A stretch of 64,000 bases of DNA, taken from an uncultured Planctomycetales bacterium (GTDB lineage: Bacteria; Omnitrophota; Gorgyraeia; Zapsychrales; JANLHA01). The position numbers and the translations under genes were made by a program. Position 1 is the first letter of the stretch. Each line of letters begins with the position of its first letter. The notes beneath the pieces were generated by a model. It had not been told where the DNA came from and searched no databases. It saw nothing but the letters and a program-made list of their open reading frames with translations. Shown piece after piece: positions 6,544-62,485 of the stretch. Where the stretch lies: positions 8,745-72,744 of the forward strand of contig CAYVEC010000006.1 of the NCBI GenBank assembly GCA_964450385.1. The letters run 5' to 3'.

Positions 6544-7995
6544 ATGCATAAACGGATCGTTTTTAATTTGATTTCCCGGATGATTCTTTTGGTGAGTCTG
6601 TTCTTGTTGTTGCCCCTGGCTTGGGCGGTCGCGGACCATCCGGACAGCGCGGAGACCCATGCGTTTATTGTCACGATCCTCGCGGGCCTCGCGTTTGCCT
6701 GCGTCGGCAATGGGGTGTTTCGTCTGGAAAAAATCGCCTTGGCGCAGATGGGGACAAAGGACGGACTTGCGATCGTCGGGCTGACCTGGATCACTCTTTC
6801 GGCGTTCGGGGCCTTGCCGTTTTTTTTAAGCGGAGAGATCGCAAGCTATACAGATGCTTTTTTTGAGACGGCGAGCGGGCTTACCACGACCGGAGCGTCG
6901 ATTCTTACCGATGTTGAGGCCTTGTCGAGGGGCCTGCTGTTTTGGAGGAGCCTCACCCATTGGATCGGGGGCATGGGGATCGTCGTTCTTTTTGTGGCGC
7001 TGTTGCCCTCGATCGGAGGAGGGTCTCTTCAGCTCTACCGCGCGGAGGCCTCAGGGGTCACGGTCGATCGGGTCGCGCCGCGCATTCGTGAGAACGCGAA
7101 AATTTTATGGCTGATTTATTTTTTTCTGTCGCTAGCCTGTTTTGGACTGCTTTTTGTGAACGGGATGCCGGTCTTTGACGCTTTGTGCCATGCCTTTGGA
7201 GCGATCGCGACCGGCGGGTTTTCAACGAAGAATGCTGGTGTTGCGGTGTATGGCCCGGCGATTCAGTGGACGCTTACTCTCTTTATGTTTTTAGGCGGGG
7301 TCAATTTTATTTTGTACTATCAGCTTTTTAGGGGCAAACCGAGGGAGCTTATTAAAGATGAAGAGCTCAGAATGTTTGCCTTGATCGTGGTTGGAGTTTC
7401 GCTCGTTTTTGCCTTTCTTTTATGGCCGAGCGGCGTGGCGAGTCCTGTTCGGCATGCGTTTTTTCAGGCAACATCAATCTTGACTACGACGGGGTTTGTC
7501 ACGACGGACTTTGACCGCTGGCCGGATGTTTTACGAGGACTCGTGTTGTTTTTGATGTTTATTGGAGGGAGCGCAGGGTCAACGAGCGGCGGGTTTAAGA
7601 TCGTGCGGACTATCATGTTGGTTAAGAGCATGGTGAAGTCGGTGGTCAAGGCGATCTATCCGAACGCCGTTGTCCCGGCGCGGTTCAATCAAAAGCCCTT
7701 TTCCGAAAAGATCGAGCTCGCGGTCTTAACCTATTTTTCGATCTTTGTGGTTTTGATTGCCGGCGGCACCTTGTTTCTGCTCGTTTCTGATCGCACGGAT
7801 ATTATTACAGCGTTCAGCGCGGCCTTGTCCGCGACGAGCAGTGTCGGCCCTGGTCTTGGCGGTGTTGGCCCGATGCAGAATTTTGGCTGGTTGAGCGATC
7901 CGGGGAAATACGCGCTTGTCTTTTTGATGATCGCCGGCCGCCTGGAGATGTACGCCTTCCTGATCCTCTTTTTTCCGACGACGTGGAAAAAGTAG
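6544..7995 (+). CDS. trkH: Trk/Ktr potassium uptake membrane subunit TrkH
   Basis: Polytopic; repeated selectivity-filter-like TTTG motifs (GLTTTGASIL, ILTTTGFVT, IATGGFST). Confidence 0.85.
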   Translation: MHKRIVFNLISRMILLVSLFLLLPLAWAVADHPDSAETHAFIVTILAGLAFACVGNGVFRLEKIALAQMGTKDGLAIVGLTWITLSAFGALPFFLSGEIASYTDAFFETASGLTTTGASILTDVEALSRGLLFWRSLTHWIGGMGIVVLFVALLPSIGGGSLQLYRAEASGVTVDRVAPRIRENAKILWLIYFFLSLACFGLLFVNGMPVFDALCHAFGAIATGGFSTKNAGVAVYGPAIQWTLTLFMFLGGVNFILYYQLFRGKPRELIKDEELRMFALIVVGVSLVFAFLLWPSGVASPVRHAFFQATSILTTTGFVTTDFDRWPDVLRGLVLFLMFIGGSAGSTSGGFKIVRTIMLVKSMVKSVVKAIYPNAVVPARFNQKPFSEKIELAVLTYFSIFVVLIAGGTLFLLVSDRTDIITAFSAALSATSSVGPGLGGVGPMQNFGWLSDPGKYALVFLMIAGRLEMYAFLILFFPTTWKK

Positions 7996-11995: not shown

Positions 11996-12190
11996 AACAC
12001 CTCCTTTGTGTATTATAAAGAGAGCAAAAAATGTTCCTTTTTGCGAAAAATAGCATAAAATTATTAAAAATTTGCAAAAATTGTATTTAAACCACGAGAA
12101 ATCTGATCAGAATTTAGTAAATGTTTTTAAAATAGCACATTAAAATTTCCTTTTTTTCGAATCAAGAAGTGTTATAATAAAACACCCTGC
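11996..12190. promoter_or_regulatory. AT-rich (about 25% GC) divergent promoter region between PEP-CTERM gene and rarA
   Basis: 195 bp of A/T tracts in a 60% GC genome, immediately upstream of both divergent genes. Confidence 0.4.
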
Positions 12191-12365
12191 GGTGTGCGTT
12201 AGGGCTATCAATAAACGAACCAACACTTGTTTATGGGGAGCTGGATCTCTGAGATGGCCCTTGGGCCATTCAGGACGGCACCCACCTGGAAGCTCGGTTC
12301 GCCTCCAGTATAGCTCGACGGCATTTGCGGGGTATTTTTTATGGGCTGTATTTAAGGAAGTCAGG

Positions 12366-18750: not shown

Positions 18751-18824
18751 TGCTCCGTGGTGTAACGGTAACACACTTGACTCTGGATCAAGCGTTTCTG
18801 GTTCGAATCCAGACGGGGCAGCCA
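18751..18824 (+). tRNA. tRNA-Gln(CTG)
   Basis: Acceptor TGCTCCG/CGGGGCA (one T.G), D-stem GTGT/ACAC, anticodon stem CTTGA/TCAAG loop CTCTGGA, T-arm TCTGG-TTCGAAT-CCAGA, discriminator G, CCA encoded. Confidence 0.85.
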
Positions 18825-30168: not shown

Positions 30169-31395
30169 ATGCCAAATACCAAGGTCCATATTTCTCAAGA
30201 ACAAGAACTCGAGGTCCTCAGAAAAATTCTCAGCATCACCTCATCCGCTGTTGATCTCGACAAGACGCTTCAGGAGACGGTGAAGATCGTGACGGCTTTT
30301 ACGGGCGCGGACTCGGTCTTTGTGTATCTCCTTGATAAGGCGCATCGTACTCTGGTCCTCCGGGCCTCTAAGATCCCGCACAAAAAGGAACTAGGCGTCG
30401 TGCACATCGGACTCGGCGAGGGGATCACCGGATGGGTGGCCCAGCAGAACAAGCCGGTTGCGATTGCTGAGAACGCGTATCAGGATAAGCGGTTTAAGGC
30501 GTTTGACGTTCTGCCTGAGGACCAGTATGAGGCCTTTTTGTCCGTGCCGCTTATTTATAAGGACAAGGTCAGCGGGGTCATCAATGTTCAGCATCGCGAG
30601 CCGCATGAGTACAGCCGTGAAACCGTGAACCTGATCCACATGATCGCCTCTCAGATCAGCGGGGTCATTGAGCACGCGCGGCTTTTTGAGGAGACGAAGG
30701 TCAAAGCGGGTCAGTTCGACCGGCTCGTCAAGGTCAGCGAATCGATCACCTCGCAGGCGTACCTCGATGAGATCTTAAATCTGATCGTGGTCGTGACCGC
30801 GGAGATGCTTAATTCAAAGATCTGTTCGATCATGCTGCTCGAGGACAAAAAAGGCGAAGAGCTCGTCATCCGCGCCACCCAGAGCCTGAGCGAGGAATAC
30901 AAGAAGAAGCCGAATCTCAAAGTCCGTCACAGTCTTCTCGGCGACGTGATCCGGACCCGCCAGCCCATTACGGTTGAGGATGTGCGCGCCGACGCGCGTT
31001 ATGCCCACCGCGCCCTGGCCATCCGTGAGGAGCTGACATCGATGGTGGCGGTCCCGATGATCGTTAAGAACAAGGTGATCGGGGTGATCAATGTCTATAC
31101 CAAGGAACCGCATCAGTTCGTCCAGGAGGAGATCAACGTTCTTCAGATGGTCGCGAATCAGGCAGCCGTGGCCGTGGAGAACACGAATCTGGTCTCTGAG
31201 GCGGTGAAGGCGAAGGAGGCCCTGGAGACCCGGAAATTCGTCGACCGGGCCAAAGGGATCCTGATGCGCCTGCATTCGCTGGATGAGGATACTGCCTACC
31301 GCATGATCCATAAAAAAAGCATGGATGCGTGCAAAACCATGAAAGAGGTCGCGGAATCGATCATTTTATTTGATGATCTGGGCCGCAAGGAATGA
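30169..31395 (+). CDS. GAF-GAF-ANTAR RNA-binding antitermination regulator
   Basis: Two GAF domains then C-terminal ANTAR helix bundle (...ETRKFVDRAKGILMRLHSLDEDTAYRMIHKKSMD...); first ATG 30169. Confidence 0.75.
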   Translation: MPNTKVHISQEQELEVLRKILSITSSAVDLDKTLQETVKIVTAFTGADSVFVYLLDKAHRTLVLRASKIPHKKELGVVHIGLGEGITGWVAQQNKPVAIAENAYQDKRFKAFDVLPEDQYEAFLSVPLIYKDKVSGVINVQHREPHEYSRETVNLIHMIASQISGVIEHARLFEETKVKAGQFDRLVKVSESITSQAYLDEILNLIVVVTAEMLNSKICSIMLLEDKKGEELVIRATQSLSEEYKKKPNLKVRHSLLGDVIRTRQPITVEDVRADARYAHRALAIREELTSMVAVPMIVKNKVIGVINVYTKEPHQFVQEEINVLQMVANQAAVAVENTNLVSEAVKAKEALETRKFVDRAKGILMRLHSLDEDTAYRMIHKKSMDACKTMKEVAESIILFDDLGRKE

Positions 31396-31535
31396 AGCGG
31401 GCATGGGTTCATTAGGGCGCTTGACAGAGCGGGATTGTTGGAGTATTCTTAAATTGTCAGGGTTAGACAGTTGAAGGACTGACATGGCAGATAAGCCCCG
31501 GAAGTAAAGAAATGCTTACCGGGGCTTTGCCATGT

Positions 31536-31562
31536 CCGGGGGGCGGATCCGCCGGGTTTTTT
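31536..31562 (+). terminator. GC-rich imperfect hairpin + T6 (terminator of ANTAR gene / candidate ANTAR-controlled structure)
   Basis: CCGGGGGGCGGATCCGCCGGG (palindromic core GGCGGATCCGCC) then TTTTTT; preceded by 8-bp hairpin AGCCCCGG...CCGGGGCT (31494-31526) that shares CCCCGG/CCGGGG arms. Confidence 0.4.
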
Positions 31563-31574
31563 GAAGTTTCACTC

Positions 31575-31603
31575 TTGACACAAAAAACATCGCGAGGTAT
31601 AGT
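31575..31603 (+). promoter_or_regulatory. consensus sigma70-type promoter for the nfn-gdhA unit
   Basis: TTGACA (31575-31580), 17-nt spacer, TATAGT (31598-31603); leaves about 150-nt leader before nfnA ATG. Confidence 0.6.
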
Positions 31604-31758
31604 ATCTTACCGCTTGAGGCATTGAGGTCTCGGGCGACCTTTTATTAAGGTAGGCAGCGTTGCCGTCACGATTGAAGTTGTGCCTATTGACCCCTTAACA
31701 ATCCCAAAGGACATGTGAGGGGATTTTTCTTTTTATTGACCCCCTGGGGAGGGTTGTC

Positions 31759-32613
31759 ATGAACGCTATTCTTAAGAAAAAACAGCTTTCTGACGAGGTT
31801 TTCCGTTTGACGGTGAGCGCTCCGCTCATTGCCGAGGAGTGTCTGCCGGGTCAATTCATCTTGCTTCAGATCCGTGATGAAGGCGAGCGGATCCCGCTCA
31901 CGATCGCGGACTCGGACAAGGCCGCAGGCACGATCACCCTTATTTTTCAGGCCGTTGGGAAGACGACCCATTTGCTTGCTGAGCTGAATGAAGGGGACGC
32001 GATCGAGAATCTGGTCGGGCCCCTCGGCCGGCCCACGCACATTGAGCGCGTTGGGACCGTTGTCTGCGTCGGGGGTGGCATCGGGGTGGCGCCTCTGTAC
32101 CCGATCGCGAAGGCGATGAAGGCGGCCGGTAACCGGCTCATTGTGATCATTGGCGCCCGGCAAAAAGACCTTGTGATCCTTGAGTCTGAGATGCGGGCGA
32201 TCGCTGATGAGCTTGTTGTCTGCACCGACGACGGGTCCTATGGCCGCAAGGCCTTGGTCACAGTGCCGCTCAAAGAGCTCTGCGAGCGCGCGGCGCCTCC
32301 GGACCTTGCGGTCGCAATCGGGCCGCCGGTGATGATGAAATTTTGTGCCGAGACGACGCGGCCCTTTAAGGTGCCGACGGTTGTTTCTCTCAACACGATC
32401 ATGATCGATGGGACCGGGATGTGCGGCGGATGCCGGGTCACGGTCGGCGGTAAGACCCAGTTTGTCTGTGTCGACGGACCGGAATTCGACGGGCATCAGG
32501 TTGATTTTGACAACATGATGAAGCGTCTTCGGGCGTATAAAGGCCATGAGGACACGGCCCACGCTCAGTGTCATTTGGAGATCGAGGCAAAAAAGAAGGC
32601 TGGGGAACGATGA
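31759..32613 (+). CDS. nfnA: NfnA/SudB-like FAD + 2Fe-2S electron-transfer subunit (PyrK family)
   Basis: 284 aa; FAD/NAD-binding fold and C-terminal CGGCRV...C cluster motif; paired and ATGA-coupled with GltD-like partner. Confidence 0.65.
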   Translation: MNAILKKKQLSDEVFRLTVSAPLIAEECLPGQFILLQIRDEGERIPLTIADSDKAAGTITLIFQAVGKTTHLLAELNEGDAIENLVGPLGRPTHIERVGTVVCVGGGIGVAPLYPIAKAMKAAGNRLIVIIGARQKDLVILESEMRAIADELVVCTDDGSYGRKALVTVPLKELCERAAPPDLAVAIGPPVMMKFCAETTRPFKVPTVVSLNTIMIDGTGMCGGCRVTVGGKTQFVCVDGPEFDGHQVDFDNMMKRLRAYKGHEDTAHAQCHLEIEAKKKAGER

Positions 32614-35786: not shown

Positions 35787-36665
35787 ATGGTCTATTACAA
35801 AAACCACAATTTTATCAAAAACAATGCGTTTTTTGATTATTTTCTGCTTTTTAGGGCAATCAATAGCCCCTTCCTTTGTTTATGCGCAGATCTTTCCGGT
35901 TGCCGGCTTGCCGGCTCCAGGCGCGGCCATTTCCCTGACGTAGCCGTTTTTCCCGACTGCCTTAAGGGTATGCAGATCAATCCGCATAATCCATTTCAAT
36001 TTAATTTTATCCTGGATGCCGGTGATGAACAGCTCGATCCTGAAGATCGGAACGATCAGGTCGTAAGGCTGGCCAAGTATTTTTTGGCTGGCCTGACGAT
36101 CCCTGAGGAGGATCTGTGGGTGAACCTGTCTCCGTATGAAAAGGATCGTATTATTGCCGGTGATTTTGCCCGGACCGAGATGGGGCGCGATGTCCTTGCC
36201 CAGGATTATATGTTGAAGCAGCTGACCGCGTCGTTGATGGACCCGCGTCAGGAGCTGGGGAGTCATTTTTGGCAGCGCTTAAAAAAGCGGGCAAAAGATG
36301 AATACGGGGTGGCGGATATCACGGCCGACACCATTCATAAGGTCTGGATCGTGCCTGAGCGGGCCGAGGTGACCGTGGGCGAGAATGGTGTCTTTTTGGG
36401 CGACCTGCGGCTCCAGGTGATGCTGGAGGAAGACTATTTAGCTAGGGCGCAAGAAAGATTTATTGTTAGAACGCCCCGGCCGAATACGAACACGGCTTTG
36501 TCGACGGAGCTGATGCGTGAGCTCATCATTCCGGCGATCGAAGAGGAGGTCAATCAGGGCCGCACCTTCGCGACCCTGCGCCAGATCTACGGGGCCATGG
36601 TCCTCTCGGTGTGGTTTAAGAATCATTTAAAAGAGAGCCTTCTCACCCGCGGGTATGCAGATTAG
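35787..36665 (+). CDS. hypothetical protein, N-terminal segment of a giant low-GC ORFan; ends at in-frame TAG 36663-36665
   Basis: ATG 35787 with AGGT 7 nt upstream; no recognisable domains; same frame as 36825 ORF with no other stop between; an alternative +1-frame signal peptide (35782-35943) overlaps the 5' end. Confidence 0.4.
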   Translation: MVYYKNHNFIKNNAFFDYFLLFRAINSPFLCLCADLSGCRLAGSRRGHFPDVAVFPDCLKGMQINPHNPFQFNFILDAGDEQLDPEDRNDQVVRLAKYFLAGLTIPEEDLWVNLSPYEKDRIIAGDFARTEMGRDVLAQDYMLKQLTASLMDPRQELGSHFWQRLKKRAKDEYGVADITADTIHKVWIVPERAEVTVGENGVFLGDLRLQVMLEEDYLARAQERFIVRTPRPNTNTALSTELMRELIIPAIEEEVNQGRTFATLRQIYGAMVLSVWFKNHLKESLLTRGYAD

Positions 36666-36824
36666 CAGAAGACCGAAGGCCTTCATCCCGACGATCCGGA
36701 TATCCAGCAGAAGATCTATGAACAGTATCTCGCCGCGCTTAAGAAAGGCGTCGCGAATTTTATTCAGGAAGAGGCGGACCCGCTGACCGGGACGGTTATT
36801 CCAAGGAAATATTTTACCGGCGGG

Positions 36825-39371
36825 GTGGACGGGGCCATGATCAGCGCGCGGACCGTAGAGGTCCCGGCAACGCCTGCGACAATGGACCGGTGGAAGAGCA
36901 CGTTTGAAAATGGACTTGTAGCCAGCTTGTATTTGGTTGATCCGAAGGCAGCAACAGGAGAGCCTGTTGATATCAGCGGTGCGTCCGAGGACTCGGCCAT
37001 GCTGAGCGAGGCGGAGGCGAAGGATTTTTATGAAAGCGACCTTCAAGGAGTTGGGAGAGTTCAATGGCAGAATCTTTCTATAAAGTCGAGAGCGGTGCTT
37101 CAAGAGATCGGCAGGGATCCGAGGCTACTGGAGCTTGGGAAAGCCGCCGGGGCGAATGCGCGGAACTTGTTTTATGATGGTTTGCCGGCAGTGAAGGCGC
37201 TGTTTGGTGACGAGTTTGGTAAGTATTGGCCGGGCTTAGTCGAGTTGGGAAAAGCCGCGGGTGAAAATGCTGGGTATTTGTTTCAACATGGATTGAAGAT
37301 GGTCTACCCTTTTGTTGATCCGGCTCACGGCTGGGACGAGTGGATCAACAGGTGGCGCCAATTGGCCCGGGTCACGAATGAACACAATCTGCAAAGAATC
37401 ATTGATTTAATGAGATGGACATCGATCCTCACTTATGTCAAAGACCAGGGAGGCAGCGTTGATCAGCACTTTGATTTTTATGTTGAGCTGAGCAAAGAGA
37501 ATAAGCGTCTTGCCCTGCAAGTTTTAGAGGGGGTCTTTGACGGTTTTAAAGAAGGGAGCCTTTCTGTTGAATTAACCGACGAGGCGCGAGGCGAGATCAG
37601 GGGCTTTATTAGAAAAACGAATGGTTTTAACCTGGCCGTGTATCGTGTTTATCAACAGGAGGGCGAGGCCGGGCTGGTGAGGTTGCGGGCGTTTGCAGCA
37701 AACGCGTTGAATGACCAGGTGGGCAAGACAGAGGTCCAAGAGTTTTTAGCGGACAACCGATCCCGAGGATACGATGCCGAGTCGCTGCTTCTTGGGACAG
37801 CGCAGATGTTTGTTCCGGCCAGCGGCGCCTCGTTTGTGAATAAGGAAGAGATCTTGGGGCTGTTGAAGGAATTTATCGAGGCCGGTGACCGGCGCGGGGA
37901 TGTGCCGGAGGCGCTCCGGGGGTCGAGCTTTGGTGGTGGGGATATTGAGGTGGTGGAGTGGCGGTTAAAACAAGGGGAAACGGTTGATCCTGACGGGAGG
38001 CTGAATAGACTCGTCTCGCAGTTGAGGAACGGAGACCAGGGCCGATCAGCAGACGAGGTTGCGAAGGCTCAAGCCCAAGACCGGGCGGAGTTGGTTGCCG
38101 CGGTCAAAGAATATTTAAAGGGCCGCGGCCAGGAGACACGAGACCGGGCTGTAGAGGCCTTTTTAAGATATGTGAGCCACAATGATCTATTAAAAGAGAA
38201 GATCGATCGGATCGACGGATATGATTATGTGAATATTGAGCTGTTGGATCAGTTGTTCCGGGATAAAGACCAGCTTTTTATTCTGTTGAGGGAGATCATT
38301 GAGAAAGATATTGAAGAAGAGCTGCTGATTGTGGAAGGTGACGAGGGCGCGCCTGTTCGCGATGTTGAGGGGCTGGTCAATCGGGTCGAGGGCGTGTGGA
38401 GATCAGAGCGGCTGGGCCGTGATCAACGGCGTCAGGTTGTGGGAAACATGCTGCGGGGGTTTTCAGGGGCAGAGGTTCGGTCAAAGATTGTCCCTCGGCT
38501 TGAGGGAGAGGCCCGCGAGGCGGTCGAGGAGATTTTGAATGATCACTCGGTTCGGTGGAAGATGGATGTGGCGCAGGTGATCAATGATCTTTTGAGCGGC
38601 CCGGCCCAGGTCATCGCGCGTGAGAAGGCGCGGTTTGAGGCGGTCACGGGAGGACAGCGGATCCAGTTGAGGTTCCGGGCGGTGAAGGGTCCGTTGTATG
38701 GCCTATGGGGGCTGAATGCGGGCGTGTGTATCGCGACGGATGTTGAGTTATGGAAGGACGGGAATTTTTATCTTCTGGCTATGGTTGATGAGACGATCGG
38801 TCAGGCGGTGGGATTTATTCATCTCTACGCGCAGACGATGGATGGGCGGCGGGTCGTGGTTGTTCCGGGGATCGAGCCGAGCGTGGAATTTTTGGGGCAG
38901 GTTAAGGTGAGTGACATTTATCCGATGATCGAGGCGGCGTTACGTGAGGTGGCGGTGCGGGCGGGGTATGAGGCGGTGTATCTGCCAACGAATGAAAATA
39001 TTTTGAGCAACCGGGGGGATATTCAGAAGCTGGTGACGAGGGCGGGGTACAAGATCTCGGATAAATTCAAGGGGCCGGTCCGCTGGAATCATGTGCCCGG
39101 GCCCGCTCTTATTCATCAGGTGTATGACGTGCCGGTCACCAAGGCGAAAACTGACTCGGCCATGCTGAGCGAGGCGGCGTCTGAGCCGGCACAGATCGGC
39201 CGCGATCAGGTGGGCGGCATTGACCTCGCCGGGATCAATATTGATATGGTGATCCGCGGTGAGATGCCGTTTCAGATGCCGGCCATCACAGAGGAGGCCC
39301 TGATCATGGATGCGGATTTCAGCGGGCTGGTGCCCGTGGTACATTTTGTGGTGCCGGTGGCTGTGAAATGA
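36825..39371 (+). CDS. hypothetical large protein (848-aa segment; frame continuous with 35787-36665 across a single TAG; possibly one 1.19-kaa protein or a pseudogene)
   Basis: Uninterrupted 2.5-kb ORF, lower GC than flanks, no known motifs recognised; internal 30-aa tandem repeat (ELGKAAGxNAxxLF) and 25-bp perfect direct DNA repeats at 36990 and 39153. Confidence 0.5.
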   Translation: MDGAMISARTVEVPATPATMDRWKSTFENGLVASLYLVDPKAATGEPVDISGASEDSAMLSEAEAKDFYESDLQGVGRVQWQNLSIKSRAVLQEIGRDPRLLELGKAAGANARNLFYDGLPAVKALFGDEFGKYWPGLVELGKAAGENAGYLFQHGLKMVYPFVDPAHGWDEWINRWRQLARVTNEHNLQRIIDLMRWTSILTYVKDQGGSVDQHFDFYVELSKENKRLALQVLEGVFDGFKEGSLSVELTDEARGEIRGFIRKTNGFNLAVYRVYQQEGEAGLVRLRAFAANALNDQVGKTEVQEFLADNRSRGYDAESLLLGTAQMFVPASGASFVNKEEILGLLKEFIEAGDRRGDVPEALRGSSFGGGDIEVVEWRLKQGETVDPDGRLNRLVSQLRNGDQGRSADEVAKAQAQDRAELVAAVKEYLKGRGQETRDRAVEAFLRYVSHNDLLKEKIDRIDGYDYVNIELLDQLFRDKDQLFILLREIIEKDIEEELLIVEGDEGAPVRDVEGLVNRVEGVWRSERLGRDQRRQVVGNMLRGFSGAEVRSKIVPRLEGEAREAVEEILNDHSVRWKMDVAQVINDLLSGPAQVIAREKARFEAVTGGQRIQLRFRAVKGPLYGLWGLNAGVCIATDVELWKDGNFYLLAMVDETIGQAVGFIHLYAQTMDGRRVVVVPGIEPSVEFLGQVKVSDIYPMIEAALREVAVRAGYEAVYLPTNENILSNRGDIQKLVTRAGYKISDKFKGPVRWNHVPGPALIHQVYDVPVTKAKTDSAMLSEAASEPAQIGRDQVGGIDLAGINIDMVIRGEMPFQMPAITEEALIMDADFSGLVPVVHFVVPVAVK

Positions 39372-39411: not shown

Positions 39412-39440
39412 TTGACAATCCCAATCTCATCGTGTATATT
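39412..39440 (+). promoter_or_regulatory. consensus sigma70-type promoter of amt-glnK unit
   Basis: TTGACA (39412-39417), 17-nt spacer, TATATT (39435-39440); about 200-nt structured leader follows. Confidence 0.6.
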
Positions 39441-39640
39441 TTAACCAACTGAAGGCGCTGGGGTCTTCAGGAAAAAGATGGACGCGACAGTGAAGTCCTC
39501 AACGGTCAGGCGATGATGCCTCCGACGAGGATTTTTTTGTTGGTCCATGAGTTGGGGCAGAGACGTCCTTAAAGGGCTTAAGACCGGAAAAGCCTTTTAG
39601 GGATTTTTTGTTTTCTGCGCCACACCACAAGGAGAAAAAA

Positions 39641-40984
39641 ATGAAAACGGTATCGAAGGTTGGCGTGGTGGTATCGGCGATGGCTGCCGGCGCCCTCCTG
39701 ACCCCAGCGGTGTCATTAGCCTCGGAGGAGACGTTGTCCTTGGCGCGGGAGGCGATGTTCACGGTGAACAATGTCTGGATGATGGTGGCGACGTTTTTGG
39801 TCTTTACGATGCATCTTGGATTCGCGACGCTTGAGAGCGGGTTGACGCGGGCCAAGAACACATCGAATATCCTGTTCAAGAACGTGATCATTGTGGCCAT
39901 CGGGCTGTTGACCTATGTGGTCCTCGGATTTAATCTGATGTATCCCGGCGAGGCCTGGATCTTTGGAAAGTGGTTCGGGTTCGGCGGATTCGGGATCGCG
40001 AGTCCTGAAGGCGCGGCCGGATTGATCGATTATGCGAACGGCCACTATACGTATTGGACGGACTTTTTATTTCAGGGGATGTTCGCGGCCACGGCAGCAA
40101 CGATCGTGTCGGGCGCTGTCGCTGAGCGCGTCCGGCTGAACAGCTTTTTATGGTTTTCCCTGTTCTTTGTCGGTCTGGTGTATCCCTTCTTAGGGAGCTG
40201 GAAGTGGGGCGGCGGGTGGTTGAACGACCTCGGGTTTTATGACTTTGCCGGGTCAACCCTTGTCCATTCCGTCGGGGGATGGGGCGCCCTTGCCGGGGTT
40301 CTGCTCTTGGGCCCGCGGATCGGGAAATACACAAAGTCCGGATCCAAGGCGATCCCGGGACACAGTATGCCGTTCGCCACGATGGGGGCGTTCATGCTGT
40401 GGCTGGGGTGGTTCGGGTTCAACGGCGGCTCGGTGCTGAGCGCTGATCCCGGGGCGGTCTCGTATGTCCTGGTGACAACGACCCTGGCCGCTGCCGCGGG
40501 AATGGTGAGCGCGATGTTCGTCTCAGCCATGGTGCAGACCAAGCCGGACCTCTCGATGGTTTTGAACGGGACCCTGGCGGGCTTGGTGGGAATCACGGCC
40601 GGCGCGGATGTCGTCTCGATCATGGGCGCGATCGCGATCGGGCTGATCTCTGGGGCCCTGGTCGTGTTGGCGGTCATCTTTATTGACACACGCCTTAAAC
40701 TCGATGACCCTGTCGGGGCGCTCTCGGTGCACTTGGTCTGCGGGGTCTGGGGGACGCTGGCGGTCGGGATCTTCAGCACGAATCCGGCGCATACCCTGTG
40801 GATCCAGCTTGTGGGCGTGGCTTCTTATGCGGTTGTGGCGTTCCCCGCGGCCTTTGCCATTATGTGGGTGGTCAAGAAGACCTGCGGGATTCGGGTTTCT
40901 GAAGAAGAGGAGATCAAGGGACTCGACATCTCGGAACACGGCATGGAGGCCTATGGCGGGTTCCAGATCTTTGCCAACGATTAA
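39641..40984 (+). CDS. amt: ammonium transporter (Amt family) with signal peptide
   Basis: 11 TM Amt/MEP fold, twin-His pore region; SD AAGGAG then ATG 39641 (ORF-track TTG 39608 extension). Confidence 0.9.
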   Translation: MKTVSKVGVVVSAMAAGALLTPAVSLASEETLSLAREAMFTVNNVWMMVATFLVFTMHLGFATLESGLTRAKNTSNILFKNVIIVAIGLLTYVVLGFNLMYPGEAWIFGKWFGFGGFGIASPEGAAGLIDYANGHYTYWTDFLFQGMFAATAATIVSGAVAERVRLNSFLWFSLFFVGLVYPFLGSWKWGGGWLNDLGFYDFAGSTLVHSVGGWGALAGVLLLGPRIGKYTKSGSKAIPGHSMPFATMGAFMLWLGWFGFNGGSVLSADPGAVSYVLVTTTLAAAAGMVSAMFVSAMVQTKPDLSMVLNGTLAGLVGITAGADVVSIMGAIAIGLISGALVVLAVIFIDTRLKLDDPVGALSVHLVCGVWGTLAVGIFSTNPAHTLWIQLVGVASYAVVAFPAAFAIMWVVKKTCGIRVSEEEEIKGLDISEHGMEAYGGFQIFAND

Positions 40985-41041
40985 CGACCGATACGGACAA
41001 GAATCTCTCAGCCGTATCCGGCTGGGGATGAGGAGGATACC

Positions 41042-41383
41042 ATGAAATTAATTATTGCGATGATTCAGCCGCACAAACTTCCGGACGTTAAAAAGGAGCT
41101 TTTTGACGCGGAGGTCCATAAAATGACAGTTACTAATGTGCTAGGATGTGGGCAGCAGAAAGGGTATAATGAGACCTATCGCGGGGTCGTTCATGAGATC
41201 AATCTGCTGAAAAAGATCCGTTTGGAGATTGCCGTGAACGATGAATTCGTGGAGCCGACGATCAGGGCGATCATCAAAGGGGCCAAGAGCGGGAAGATCG
41301 GGGACGGCAAGATCTTTGTCCTGCCGCTCAGCGAATGCATTCGTATCCGTACCGGAGAGCGCGGGGGCGAGGCGATCGGTTAG
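41042..41383 (+). CDS. glnK: nitrogen regulatory protein P-II (GlnK type, amt-linked)
   Basis: 112 aa, [10 protein letters not shown]..., T-loop [12 protein letters not shown] with conserved Tyr. Confidence 0.9.
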
Positions 41384-41412: not shown

Positions 41413-41547
41413 ATGGCATACGTCATGTTGATATCAGGGTGTTTGGTCGGGGCGGGTGTCGCGAGCGTGGTGTTGCGCCGCACGATCTATTCGCGGCATG
41501 AGCTCGCGGACAGCCTGCGTGAGACGTTTGATACCAACGAAGAATAA
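41413..41547 (+). CDS. 44-aa hydrophobic micro-protein between glnK and glnN
   Basis: Strong SD AAGGAGG 9 nt before ATG 41413; [44 protein letters not shown]: one TM helix + charged tail; below ORF-track cutoff. Confidence 0.35.
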
Positions 41548-41593: not shown

Positions 41594-43690
41594 ATGATGG
41601 ACGAGATGTTGGAAAAAGAGGTGCAGCAAGTTCCGGAGTATTACGGAAAAAATGTCTTCAGCCTCAAGGTCATGCGTAATTATCTCTCGGAAAAGGGATT
41701 CAAGTCGCTTGAGAAGACCATTACCGAGGGCGGCAAGCTTGATCCGAAGATCGCTGATGAGGTCGCGGATGCGATGAAGACCTGGGCCTTGGCCAAGGGG
41801 GCGACGCACTATACCCATTGGTTCCAGCCGCTCACGGGCCTGACCGCGGAGAAGCATGATTCCTTTATTTCGCCTGACGGTGAGGGCGGCGCGATCATGA
41901 AGTTTTCAGGAAAGGAATTGATCCAGGGTGAACCTGACGCCTCGAGTTTCCCGTCGGGAGGTCTGCGTCCGACGTTCGAGGCCCGCGGGTATACCGGCTG
42001 GGATCCGACGAGTCCGGCCTTTATCAAGGAAGGCCCGAACGGGGCCACGCTCTGTATCCCGACGTATTTTGTCGGGTATCATGGGGAGGCGCTCGACAAG
42101 AAAACGCCGCTGCTCCGTTCGATCGATGTCTTGGCTGTTCAGCTCAACCGCCTCGGGGAACTGTTCGGCGTGAGCATGAAACAACGGCCGTATGCGACGC
42201 TCGGAGCCGAGCAGGAGTATTTTTTGATCGACCGTGATTTCTATGAGGCGCGGCTCGATCTGATGCAGACGGGACGGACGCTCTTTGGCCGTCCGCCGGC
42301 GAAGCATCAGCAGATGGCCGACCATTATTTCGGCGCGATCAAGAGCCGGGTCATCGGGTTTATGGAGGACCTGGACCGGGAGATGTGGAAACTCGGGACG
42401 CCGGTGAAGACCCGGCATAACGAGGTCGCCCCGGGCCAATACGAGATCGCCCCGGTCTTTGAGACGTTGAATCTCACGATCGACCACAACATGCTCTTGA
42501 TGGAGGTCATGCAAAAAGTCGCGGAAAAACACGGGCTTGCGTGCCTCCTTCATGAAAAACCGTTTGCCGGGGTTAACGGGAGCGGGAAGCATAATAACTG
42601 GTCCGTGGTCGGGCCCGACGGAAAGAACTGGCTCTCTCCGGGGGATAACCCGCATGAGAATGCCAAATTCTTGGTGATGCTCTGCGCAGTGATCAAGGCG
42701 GTTGACACGTGGGCCCCGGCCCTTCGGGCGTCGATCGCGAGCGCGAGCAACGATCATCGTCTTGGGTCTCATGAGGCCCCGCCGGCGATCCTCTCGATCT
42801 TTTTGGGTGATCAGCTTACTGACATTATTGAGCAGATCGAAAATGGCGGCGCGAAGAGTTCTAAAAAAGGCGGGGTGCTGAAGGTCGGGGTCGATTCTCT
42901 GCCCGAGCTGCCGCGAGACGCGACGGACCGGAACAGGACGTCTCCGTTCGCCTTTACCGGCGCCAAGTTTGAGTTCCGCGCGCCGGGCTCGAGTCAGAAC
43001 CTCGCGGGTCCGAATCTGATCCTCAACACCATCGTGGCTGAGGCTTTGGACGAGATGTGTACTGAGCTTGAAAAGGCCGATAAAAAAAGATTCAATGAGG
43101 CCGTGAGCGCCCTCTTGCAGAAGACGATCAAGAGGCATAAGCGGATCCTGTTTAATGGGGACAATTATACCGAGGCCTGGGTTAAAGAGGCCGAGCGGCG
43201 CGGGCTGCCGAACCTTAAGACAACGCCCGAGGCCCTTGAGTTCATGCGGTCTCCGTCGGTCGTCGAGCTGTTTGAGCGGCGCGGGATTTTGACGAAGGTC
43301 GAGATGTTGAGCCGGTATGAGGTCTATAGCGAGACCTACGCGACGATTATTGCGTATGAGGGAGCCCTGGCGGCGGACATGGTGAAGACCATGTATCTTC
43401 CGGCGGTGATCGGGTATCAGGAGGAGCTTGCGTCATCTATCAAGTCGGCGGAGGCGATCAGTAAGACGACCCTGACTCAGCAGCGCAAACTTTTGGCGAG
43501 CGTCAGCCGGGGCGTTGAGGCCGCCTTGGAGTGTGTCCGCAGGCTTGATGCGGCGATCGAAAAAAATGATGCCGTGAAAATCAAGGCGCTCATGGGCAGT
43601 CTGCGTTTGCCCATCGACGAGCTTGAGGGATTGGTGCCGAAAGAGTTCTGGCCGGTCCCGACGTACGCTGAGATGCTGTTTATGTATTAG
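41594..43690 (+). CDS. glnN: glutamine synthetase type III (GlnN)
   Basis: About 700 aa; N-terminal ...[74 protein letters not shown]... is the hallmark GSIII N-domain; ATG 41594 (ORF-track 41456 extension). Confidence 0.85.
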
Positions 43691-54648: not shown

Positions 54649-54703
54649 TGTCAAGGATTGGCCGGTGAAAGTCCTTGACATTGGCGGGTGATAACGGTAT
54701 AGT
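54649..54703 (+). promoter_or_regulatory. carA promoter with overlapping 9-bp inverted-repeat operator
   Basis: IR TGTCAAGGA-N14-TCCTTGACA; right arm contains -35 TTGACA (54675-54680), 17-nt spacer, -10 TATAGT (54698-54703). Confidence 0.55.
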
Positions 54704-54724
54704 AAACTATGTTTTAGGGCATTG

Positions 54725-54764
54725 AAGTCCTCAAAATTGTGGTTAATTTTGAGGACTTTTTTTG
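54725..54764 (+). terminator. leader hairpin + T7 in carA 5' UTR (candidate transcription attenuator)
   Basis: Near-perfect 14-bp stem AAGTCCTCAAAATT/AATTTTGAGGACTT, loop GTGGTT, then TTTTTTTG, located between promoter -10 and carA ATG. Confidence 0.55.
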
Positions 54765-54805
54765 TGAAAAAATCAAGTTCGGCGTATTTTCAAGCTGGGG
54801 AATCC

Positions 54806-55936
54806 ATGAAACGGGCGGTTATTTATTTAGAAGACGGGGTGATGTTTTACGGCCGGTCCCTTGATGTCACGGGTGAGTCCGAGGGCGAGGTTGTCTTTAA
54901 CACCTCGATGACCGGTTATCAGGAGATCCTGACGGACCCGAGTTATGCCGGTCAGATCGTGACCATGACGTATCCGCTTATTGGAAATTATGGGGTCAAC
55001 GGCGATGATGTTGAGTCGGACCGCGTCCATGTGAAGGGTTTTGTCGTCAAGGAATTCTGCCGCCGCCATTCGAATTTCCGCGCCACCGAAAGCCTGATCG
55101 ATTATCTAAAGCGTTATCAGATCCTCGCGGTTGAGGGGGTGGACACCCGGGCACTCACACGTCATCTTCGCGAGCATGGGTCGATGCGCGCGATCTTGTC
55201 GACCGAGGACATGGACCCGGCCTCGCTGGCTAAAAAAATGACACGGGTCCCGTCGATGGACGGGGCGGATTGGGTGAGCGCGGTCACGGCCCGTGAGCCG
55301 TATGTCTGGCCGGCGGAGGGGGCGTATCAAGACCGTCCGAGGTTTCGCGTCGCGGTCATTGACTGCGGGGTCAAGTGGACGATCCTGCGTATCTTTGCCC
55401 GGCTTGGGTGCGAGTGCCATGTCTTTCCGGCCGGGACGGCGCTCGAGGCGATGCTTGCTATTCGGCCGGATGGGCTCTTTATTTCAAACGGTCCCGGGGA
55501 CCCGGCGGCCGTGACCTCTGTTATCGCCGAGACGCGCAAGGCGATCGGCCGGCTGCCGATCTTTGGGATCTGCCTCGGCAATCAGATCTTGGGGCTAGCC
55601 CTGGGCGGACGGACCTATAAATTAAAGTTTGGACATCACGGGGCGAATCACCCGGTCCTGGATACGAGCCATGCCCGGATCGGGATCACATCGCAGAACC
55701 ACGGATTTTGTGTGGACCTTAATTCACTTGATCGGAAGGATATCGAGATCATCAACCTGAATCTGAACGATCAGACGGTCGAGGGAATTCGGCATAAACG
55801 ATATCCGATCTATGCGGTGCAGCATCATCCCGAGGCCGCGCCGGGGCCGCACGATGCCAGGTATTTGTTTGAAGATTTTATCCGGATGATGAATGAGAAT
55901 GCAACAGGGGTCGGGCGGCCAGCGGGCCGTCGCTAG
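54806..55936 (+). CDS. carA: carbamoyl-phosphate synthase small (glutaminase) subunit
   Basis: MKRAVIYLEDGVMFYGRSLD... CarA N-domain + class I GATase triad (GICLGNQ, HH); ATG 54806 (ORF-track TTG 54722 runs through leader hairpin). Confidence 0.9.
   Translation: MKRAVIYLEDGVMFYGRSLDVTGESEGEVVFNTSMTGYQEILTDPSYAGQIVTMTYPLIGNYGVNGDDVESDRVHVKGFVVKEFCRRHSNFRATESLIDYLKRYQILAVEGVDTRALTRHLREHGSMRAILSTEDMDPASLAKKMTRVPSMDGADWVSAVTAREPYVWPAEGAYQDRPRFRVAVIDCGVKWTILRIFARLGCECHVFPAGTALEAMLAIRPDGLFISNGPGDPAAVTSVIAETRKAIGRLPIFGICLGNQILGLALGGRTYKLKFGHHGANHPVLDTSHARIGITSQNHGFCVDLNSLDRKDIEIINLNLNDQTVEGIRHKRYPIYAVQHHPEAAPGPHDARYLFEDFIRMMNENATGVGRPAGRR

Positions 55937-62403: not shown

Positions 62404-62485
<82 letters not shown>

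Follow-up and report, generated by a model that had tools for sequence, protein, structure and literature searches.

The DNA analysed here, a stretch of 64 kb that we call the window, is a nitrogen-assimilation supercluster with nearly all genes on the plus strand. A gene for a GAF-GAF-ANTAR protein is followed by an nfnAB/gltD-like pair, gdhA, two unknown ORFs, amt, glnK, the type III glutamine synthetase (GSIII) gene glnN, a GATase gene, nadE, gltB and gltD, with carA further on. The closest relatives of the Amt protein come from Candidatus Omnitrophota MAGs (79-83% identical). The genes central to this analysis are as follows.

30169 to 31395, plus strand: one-component GAF-GAF-ANTAR regulator gene, about 408 aa (Pfam GAF twice; ANTAR, PF03861, 7e-20)
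39629 onward, plus strand: Shine-Dalgarno (SD) sequence of amt, AAGGAG; the regulated stretch is 39629 to 41383
39641 to 40984, plus strand: amt (Pfam Ammonium_transp, 8e-117)
41042 to 41383, plus strand: glnK (Pfam P-II, 1e-28)
about 41594 to 43690, plus strand: glnN (GSIII Pfam domains)

The SD and the ATG at 39641 that the first-pass annotation had assigned to amt are both present in the sequence. In the window no terminator separates glnK from glnN. The amt-glnK operon probably reads on into glnN via a 44-aa ORF. A strong SD (AAGGAGG) precedes this ORF (41413-41547), whose N-terminal half is hydrophobic, and a 42-aa gene has been called at the same place in the related locus L121. In three other related loci (L003, L010 and L011) the glnK-glnN gap, which has no terminator in the window, holds an ANTAR module of the kind described below.

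The two ORFs 5' of the amt leader (35787-39371; 292 and 848 aa) gave no Pfam or NCBIfam match. The pair resembles the N-terminal region of a protein in another locus (L112, 7481 onward) that exceeds 1900 aa in length and is encoded after an ANTAR-type leader; the window copy may be split or frameshifted. The window also contains a 6S RNA (RF00013, 71 bits) at 12181-12337 and tRNA genes at 1770-2067, 18751-18821 and 62404-62485.

The leader of amt consists, from 5' to 3', of a promoter, a first hairpin (P1), a 15-nt linker, a second hairpin (P2), a terminator (T1) with a run of seven U residues, a third hairpin (P2'), a second terminator (T2) with its U-run, and the amt SD. A short reading frame overlaps these structures.

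39412 to 39440, plus strand: sigma-70 consensus promoter TTGACA-17-TATATT (11 of 12 positions match)
39449 to 39470, plus strand: P1, the 'recruitment' hairpin, CUGAAGGC-GCUGGG-GUCUUCAG (8 bp, hexaloop, G at loop position 4, closing C-G pair)
39478 to 39516, plus strand: 12-codon upstream ORF (uORF) MDATVKSSTVRR (ATG at 39478, TGA at 39514-39516)
39486 to 39497, plus strand: P2, antitermination hairpin 1, GAC-AGUGAA-GUC (3 bp, hexaloop with A1 and G4)
39493 to 39538, plus strand: terminator T1, AAGUCCUC (39493-39500) paired with GAGGAUUU (39527-39534), with internal loops; U7 at 39532-39538
39554 to 39569, plus strand: P2', antitermination hairpin 2, GGGGC-AGAGAC-GUCCU (5 bp, hexaloop with A1 and G4)
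39565 to 39614, plus strand: terminator T2, a 15-bp stem GUCCUUAAAGGGCUU / AAGCCUUUUAGGGAU (39565-39604), then U6GU4; -18.8 kcal/mol

The promoter is present as first annotated, and transcription is predicted to start at about 39447-39448. Perfect TTGACA-N17-TATNNT sites occur four times in the 64 kb (31421, 31575, 39412 and 54675), against 0.04 expected, and all four lie on the plus strand, in intergenic DNA, 5' of structured RNAs. The leader RNA (39447-39645) is far more stable than its shuffled counterparts, folding at -83.8 kcal/mol compared with -55.2 +/- 3.6 kcal/mol (z = -7.9). Neither T1 nor T2 had been picked up by a simple terminator scan, whose limits on loops and bulges excluded them.

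Inspection of the fold changed the shape of the hairpins that the first-pass annotation had drawn. The hairpin at 39449-39470, described there as 6 bp long, exists; its stem is 8 bp, closed by the hexaloop GCUGGG, and folds at -10.6 kcal/mol. The first terminator-like element had been placed at 39519-39540 as a local CCTC-CGAC-GAGG hairpin, a pairing that was not upheld: GAGG at 39527-39530 pairs with (AAGU)CCUC at 39493-39500 and not with the adjacent CCTC at 39519-39522, and the pairing that closes T1 in this way covaries in relatives. The T7 run assigned to this element is the U7 of T1. T1 is thus a structure of 42 nt (-19.4 kcal/mol) with the apex AGGC-GAUGAU-GCCU (39508-39521). For the second element, read as GGCTT-N10-AAGCC followed by T-runs, the sequence and the U6GU4 tract (39604-39614) are real, and what was wrong was the extent of the hairpin, which is the mere tip of the 15-bp T2 stem.

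Each terminator shares bases with a hexaloop hairpin. The loop and 3' arm of P2 sit within the foot of T1, and the first five bases of T2 (39565-39569) are the 3' arm of P2'. P2 alone is weak (-0.7 to -3.6 kcal/mol), with an alternative 5' arm, GGAC at 39480-39483, able to pair with GUCC at 39495-39498; P2' folds at -5.0 kcal/mol. When P2 and P2' are both forced, the leader folds at -53.9 kcal/mol instead of the -83.8 kcal/mol of the minimum free energy (MFE) structure, a cost of about 30 kcal/mol. Since P2 and P2' are so weak beside T1 and T2, the default state is predicted to be termination, and read-through would need an outside factor.

ANTAR targets have been described as hexaloop hairpins that carry G at loop position 4 and of which the second excludes a terminator (Ramesh et al. 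2012, PMC3369931). The amt leader contains three such stem-loops with six-base loops and stems of 8, 3 and 5 bp, where at least two stem-loops of at least 3 bp each characterize a target, and its folds are mutually exclusive, P2 overlapping T1 and P2' overlapping T2, both terminators having U-runs. All three hexaloops carry G at position 4 (GCUGGG, AGUGAA and AGAGAC). A at position 1 is found in P2 and P2', whilst P1 has G, and the P1 hairpins of relatives have A or G about equally. Structural work has shown that G4, which stacks on an ANTAR tyrosine, is the critical contact rather than A1, to which the protein makes no specific contact (Walshe et al. 2022, PMC8934654). The same study proposed a single hexaloop as the minimal ANTAR site, with a model leading from a recruitment hairpin to an antitermination hairpin (PMC8934654). 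P2' in the amt leader has no nearby P1 of its own.

We also considered the terminator apex loop as a second ANTAR hairpin. This idea was largely dropped. The feature is not conserved among the closest relatives, and among MFE-defined loops an [A/G]NNGNN hexaloop forms the apex of only 5 of 39 module terminators and of 24 of 975 other terminator-like hairpins (P = 0.004); T1 of the window (GAUGAU) and the terminator of L011 (AGUGAA) have apices of this type, and the effect is weak.

To compare leaders, related amt loci were reached through homologues of the window Amt protein, and the 340-420 nt 5' of amt were read in each. The layout is shared by 13 Omnitrophota amt leaders. Five of them (L001, L120, L121, L123 and L125) keep the order promoter-P1-P2-T1-P2'-T2 and align with the window over the full length; the eight more distant ones (L002, L003, L005, L007, L009, L010, L011 and L122) contain one to three modules in quite different sequences. 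The promoter is as in the window, and at an equal distance from P1, in the same five loci and in L122. An RNAalifold consensus of the window and its closest leaders contains P1, T1 and T2, with compensatory changes in 14 of 35 pairs, mostly within the terminators; the T1 and T2 stems thus covary. The P hairpins of the closest leaders are nearly invariant, with AAGGC...GUCUU in P1 and GGRC-AnnGAn-GYCC in P2 and P2'. P2, which in the first module has 3 bp in the window versus 4 bp in relatives, aligns column for column with their GGGC/GGAC-AnnGAn-GUCC, and GGGC...G.CC of P2' is invariant in six aligned leaders. Near-invariant P hairpins beside covarying terminators fit protein-recognition sites next to purely structural terminators.

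Among close relatives the P-hairpin stems are too uniform for covariation to serve as proof of them. P1 is the first structure of the transcript in eight of the nine leaders first examined. Across eight leaders, seven of the eight P1 pairs have changed on both sides and 94% of cells are paired, counts that are biased by selection through the hairpin scan. Free of this bias are the invariant closing C-G pair of P1, its invariant G4 and its first position in the transcript. G4 is invariant in both P1 and P2 of ten relatives, and the P1-P2 linker, 15 nt in the window, measures about 13-20 nt in most relatives.

The P1-linker-P2 segments of ten relatives, without the window, were then made into a covariance model (model R1), a home-made one whose E-values are rough. 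Searched with filters off, its top match in the 64 kb is 39446-39504 (43.5 bits, E = 2e-8), with the carA leader second (E = 0.07). When 883 kb of sequence from 80 amt loci of many phyla was searched, matches were obtained only in the Omnitrophota group that has the GAF-GAF-ANTAR regulator. In 39 loci fetched via the regulator protein, model R1 gave 24 matches at E < 1, every one of them co-oriented with the regulator gene and most of them shortly 3' of it. Hairpins with an [A/G]NNGNN hexaloop are 7-13 times denser in nine leaders than in a background of about 1.9 Mb, counting both strands of the first 80 loci and the window (P ~1e-16). Among GGRC-N6-GYCC sites, A1/G4 loops account for 44% of those with a T-run in the next 60 nt and for 10% of the remainder. 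A permissive version of our module scanner was swamped by coding-region noise, and requiring at least seven outer pairs isolated the family.

The candidate regulator is encoded 8 kb 5' of the amt leader in the window. Its orthologues (60-68% identical) lie directly 5' of the amt leader in L003, L005, L009, L010 and L011, and the contexts regulator-leader-amt or regulator-leader-glnN also occur in metagenome loci. The ANTAR domain aligns with those of EutV (6wsh), Rv1626 and NasR, and it keeps the EutV residues K143, Y164 and M172, with K147 replaced by R; the numbers and roles of these RNA-contact residues are those given in PMC8934654. GAF1 is closest to the GAF domain of PtsP/EI-Ntr (3ci6, 1e-22; NF008283, 2e-38) and GAF2 to that of NifA (TIGR01817, 2e-28). 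The EI-Ntr GAF domain is documented to bind glutamine (PMC4848567), which makes glutamine or 2-oxoglutarate a reasonable candidate signal for the regulator. Thus, the GAF domains may sense one of these metabolites, and the operon may be on under nitrogen limitation, a suggestion that we make weakly from domain homology. As of 2020, NasR (NIT) and PAL (PAS/LOV) were the only one-component ANTAR regulators with a reported characterization, and no GAF-ANTAR protein was included (PMC7496416). ANTAR modules (GGGC-GAAGAN-GUCC followed by a terminator) stand directly 5' of the GAF-GAF-ANTAR gene in L099 (5898), L106 (93) and L108 (4270-4308), which suggests autoregulation in some lineages. The window shows no module 5' of the regulator gene; the genes before it there are nqrF and an nqrM-like ORF. 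The window covers 64 kb of the genome, and other ANTAR proteins may be encoded elsewhere.

The first-pass annotation had taken the arrangement as a sign of transcription attenuation, controlled either by a translating ribosome or by a protein, the neighboring ANTAR protein or PII. Attenuation is borne out by two strong, conserved terminators, each overlapped by an ANTAR-type hexaloop hairpin, and the presence of hairpins of this type across both terminators points to the ANTAR protein as the controller. For PII acting directly on the RNA, no support was found. We therefore consider it likely that the amt-glnK leader is the target of an ANTAR-type antiterminator and that the operon is regulated by ANTAR-dependent antitermination. 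The computed leader structures exclude one another, are conserved and go together with an ANTAR gene; from this we infer that the GAF-GAF-ANTAR protein binds the leader and that binding causes read-through. Some features of the window count against this view: the G that opens the P1 loop, the P2 stem of just 3 bp, the linker of 15 nt, the lack of a P1 close to P2', and the distance of 8 kb to the regulator gene.

Three other explanations were weighed against this one. Under ribosome-mediated attenuation, translation of the uORF would decide whether T1 forms, as in the leaders of amino-acid operons. A reading frame from ATG to TGA does exist, with AGGA 6 nt 5' of its ATG, and it overlaps the 5' half of T1; that it encodes a functional leader peptide, as first proposed, is contradicted by several observations. 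None of the 13 related leaders has an equivalent uORF, either by position or by peptide: their ATGs fall at varying places, often arising from GAUGUCC of P2, and the peptides are unrelated. An ATG ORF of at least 12 codons appears in 66% of leader shuffles, and one with an SD-like site in 16%, so the window uORF is within chance. Half of its proposed SD is paired in the P1 stem, its peptide has no run of nitrogen-related codons, and its translation would leave T2 unexplained. We judge the uORF to be a chance by-product of the P2/T1 sequence, and we hold ribosome-mediated attenuation to be highly improbable. Genome annotation should leave the 12-codon uORF out.

A metabolite-binding riboswitch, for example for glutamine, or another RNA-only sensor could also control the terminators, and the unusual stability of the leader (z = -7.9) and the glutamine riboswitches known 5' of nitrogen genes in other phyla would agree with this. 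Rfam, however, gave no family at gathering score relevant to the leader in a search of the whole window; within the leader, no glnA or glutamine-riboswitch match was obtained, and a cut-off of E = 10 let in no more than two noise matches (E ~7). What is conserved is confined to the small hexaloop hairpins and the terminator feet, the rest being free in sequence and length, which leaves no candidate ligand pocket, and the modular repetition in one to three units fits a protein site rather than an aptamer. A riboswitch is therefore very unlikely. The hexaloops might instead be bound by a factor other than an ANTAR protein, or the terminators might be constitutive dampers or makers of short, stable leader RNAs, without conditional read-through. 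That binding of the hairpins by an ANTAR protein is deduced from sequence, that the regulator gene lies 8 kb away in the window, and that short leader transcripts ending at the terminators would contain hexaloops and might be functional in their own right, all leave some room for such a role. Yet the hairpins are a close fit to the definition of an ANTAR target, they co-occur and are co-oriented with an ANTAR gene, and the ANTAR domain of the regulator keeps its RNA-contact residues; moreover, to place two terminators of about -19 kcal/mol, both with long U-runs, before genes essential for nitrogen uptake would make little sense without an override. We regard this explanation as unlikely.

In the ANTAR-dependent mechanism that we propose, transcription would start from a strong, probably constitutive promoter and would by default be stopped by T1 or T2, which lie in series and would multiply the stringency of the off state. 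Under nitrogen scarcity the GAF-GAF-ANTAR protein, most likely the product of 30169-31395, would become competent for RNA binding and would dock on P1 as it emerges, at about +2 to +24. It would then stabilize the weak P2 and subsequently P2'. Both of these hairpins use GUCC(U) of the next terminator foot, so that the terminator could not close beside its U-run, and RNA polymerase would continue into amt and glnK, and probably as far as glnN. This course of events is that of the model of Walshe et al. (2022), except that a single P1 seems to be shared by two terminators, and by three in some relatives.

To get a broader picture of the candidate regulon, we compiled the genes preceded by modules in the window and in related loci. 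They include genes for both Amt types, glnN for GSIII, carA, a nirB-like gene, porin-like genes and the regulator gene itself (three loci). A module also precedes the gene for a protein related to window ORF 35787-36665. In the window, the carA leader is predicted to be a second member of the regulon.

54675 to 54763, plus strand: carA leader, with promoter TTGACA-17-TATAGT, P2 GGGC-AUUGAA-GUCC (54717-54730) and a terminator (54727-54756) followed by U7

In this leader (54675-54806) a single hairpin overlaps a terminator of 13 bp, and the terminator apex is a GUGGUU hexaloop. No P1 was found after its predicted start.

Two further structured units lie near the regulator gene. The leader of the nfnAB/gltD-like operon (31575-31760), with gdhA next, has a consensus promoter, a P1-like hairpin CGCUUGAGGC-AUUGAG-GUCUCGGGCG, a GGC-AGCGUU-GCC hairpin 16 nt after it, and a terminator CCCCUUA...UGAGGGG with a U-run. 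As an ANTAR switch, this leader (31605-31760) was set aside: no hairpin overlaps the terminator foot and no convincing switch could be derived. Neither L001 nor L120 conserves this leader. Directly 3' of the regulator gene, a small-RNA-like unit (31421-31566) has a perfect TTGACA-17-TATTCT promoter and would give a transcript of about 115 nt (31450-31566; -54.7 kcal/mol, z = -5.8) ending in a GC hairpin with U6. The unit recurs after the regulator orthologue in L081 (~7307-7487), where the next gene is convergent, and the core conserved between the window and L081 is GGCA..AAGCCCC..GUAAAGAAAUGCU..CGGGGCUUUGCC. Rfam returned nothing relevant over 31390-31770 at E up to 10. A role as a decoy like EutX/Rli55 is so far unsupported, with no clear G4 hexaloop in the RNA; the small RNA (31450-31566) might be part of the GAF-GAF-ANTAR circuit.

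The proposed switch resembles characterized ANTAR systems in its essentials. As in EutV/eut of Enterococcus faecalis, NasR/nasF and AmiR/amiE, the hexaloops have G4, the downstream hairpin shares the 5' arm of the terminator, the upstream P1 is a recruitment hairpin, the ANTAR protein is encoded nearby and the targets belong to nitrogen metabolism. The regulator differs, being a one-component GAF-GAF-ANTAR protein, whereas EutV is a response regulator, NasR has a NIT domain and AmiR a pseudo-receiver. In contrast to eut-type targets, the P1 loop of the window starts with G, one P1 is followed by two to three terminator modules of which the later ones have a lone hexaloop, and the P stems have conserved sequences specific to this lineage (GGRC/GYCC, and AAGGC/GUCUU in P1). 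The linker of 13-20 nt between P1 and P2 is also longer than in eut: for EutV, linkers of 5-12 nt work and those of 3 or 14 nt are impaired. The search model of 2012 allowed a variable linker (PMC3369931). That search predicted ANTAR RNA matches 5' of P-II, ammonium-transporter and glutamate/glutamine synthase genes across bacteria (PMC3369931).

A parallel by target is found in Geobacter sulfurreducens, where GnfK/GnfR act on the leader terminators of several nitrogen genes, glnK-amtB among them (Ueki and Lovley 2010, PMC2995071), and GnfR is needed for read-through, as shown for nifH (PMC2995071). A conserved CAGGCAANGGCGCC, which forms a GGC-AANGGC-GCC hexaloop hairpin with A1 and G4, overlaps the GnfR terminators, an arrangement similar to that in the amt leader though different in hairpin sequence. 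GnfR combines a receiver with ANTAR, as a response regulator paired with a kinase, whereas the window protein has GAF sensors. The promoters upstream of the GnfR terminators depend on RpoN (sigma-54) and are activated by GnfM, whereas the amt leader has a sigma-70 consensus promoter.

The classical NtrC/sigma-54 scheme controls amtB-glnK at the initiation of transcription. The amt leader of the window concerns the same operon and presumably serves the same purpose, induction under nitrogen limitation; here, in contrast, the promoter looks constitutive and control would be exerted at elongation. Within Omnitrophota, three loci have sigma-54 promoters (TGGCAC-N5-TTGCA) 5' of amt where the window has sigma-70: L013 (~5850, TTGGCACGGTCATTGCA), L038 (~5945, TTGGCACGGCGATTGCA) and L070 (~5900, TTGGCATGCCCCATGCA). 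No ANTAR modules were found in the amt leaders of these three loci. Judging from these sequences, control of the amt operon appears to be rewired within the phylum.

A wider reading joins these observations. In it, the lineage would run its nitrogen assimilation at elongation, instead of through NtrC/sigma-54, by a relay of a one-component antiterminator whose PtsP-like and NifA-like GAF domains would read glutamine and/or 2-oxoglutarate directly. The regulon would comprise amt-glnK-glnN and carA, and in relatives the nirB-like, porin-like and regulator genes, and the protein would be loaded once on P1 and handed along two to three serial single-hexaloop antiterminators. We offer this joint reading tentatively, as a possibility that we doubt somewhat more than we believe.

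Our literature search for ANTAR in Omnitrophota found no relevant paper. The leader belongs to an already known kind of nitrogen control, placed here in an uncultured Omnitrophota-like bacterium; the fresh elements are only the uncharacterized one-component GAF sensor and the serial single-hexaloop modules. Taken at this strength, the analysis proposes a concrete regulatory circuit for nitrogen uptake in an uncultured phylum and puts forward a set of natural RNA targets for a GAF-ANTAR protein. The serial layout, with one P1 and two to three lone antitermination hairpins, provides a natural experiment for the single-hexaloop and successive-binding proposal of 2022. If true, the joint reading would amount to a 'relay' variant of ANTAR control.
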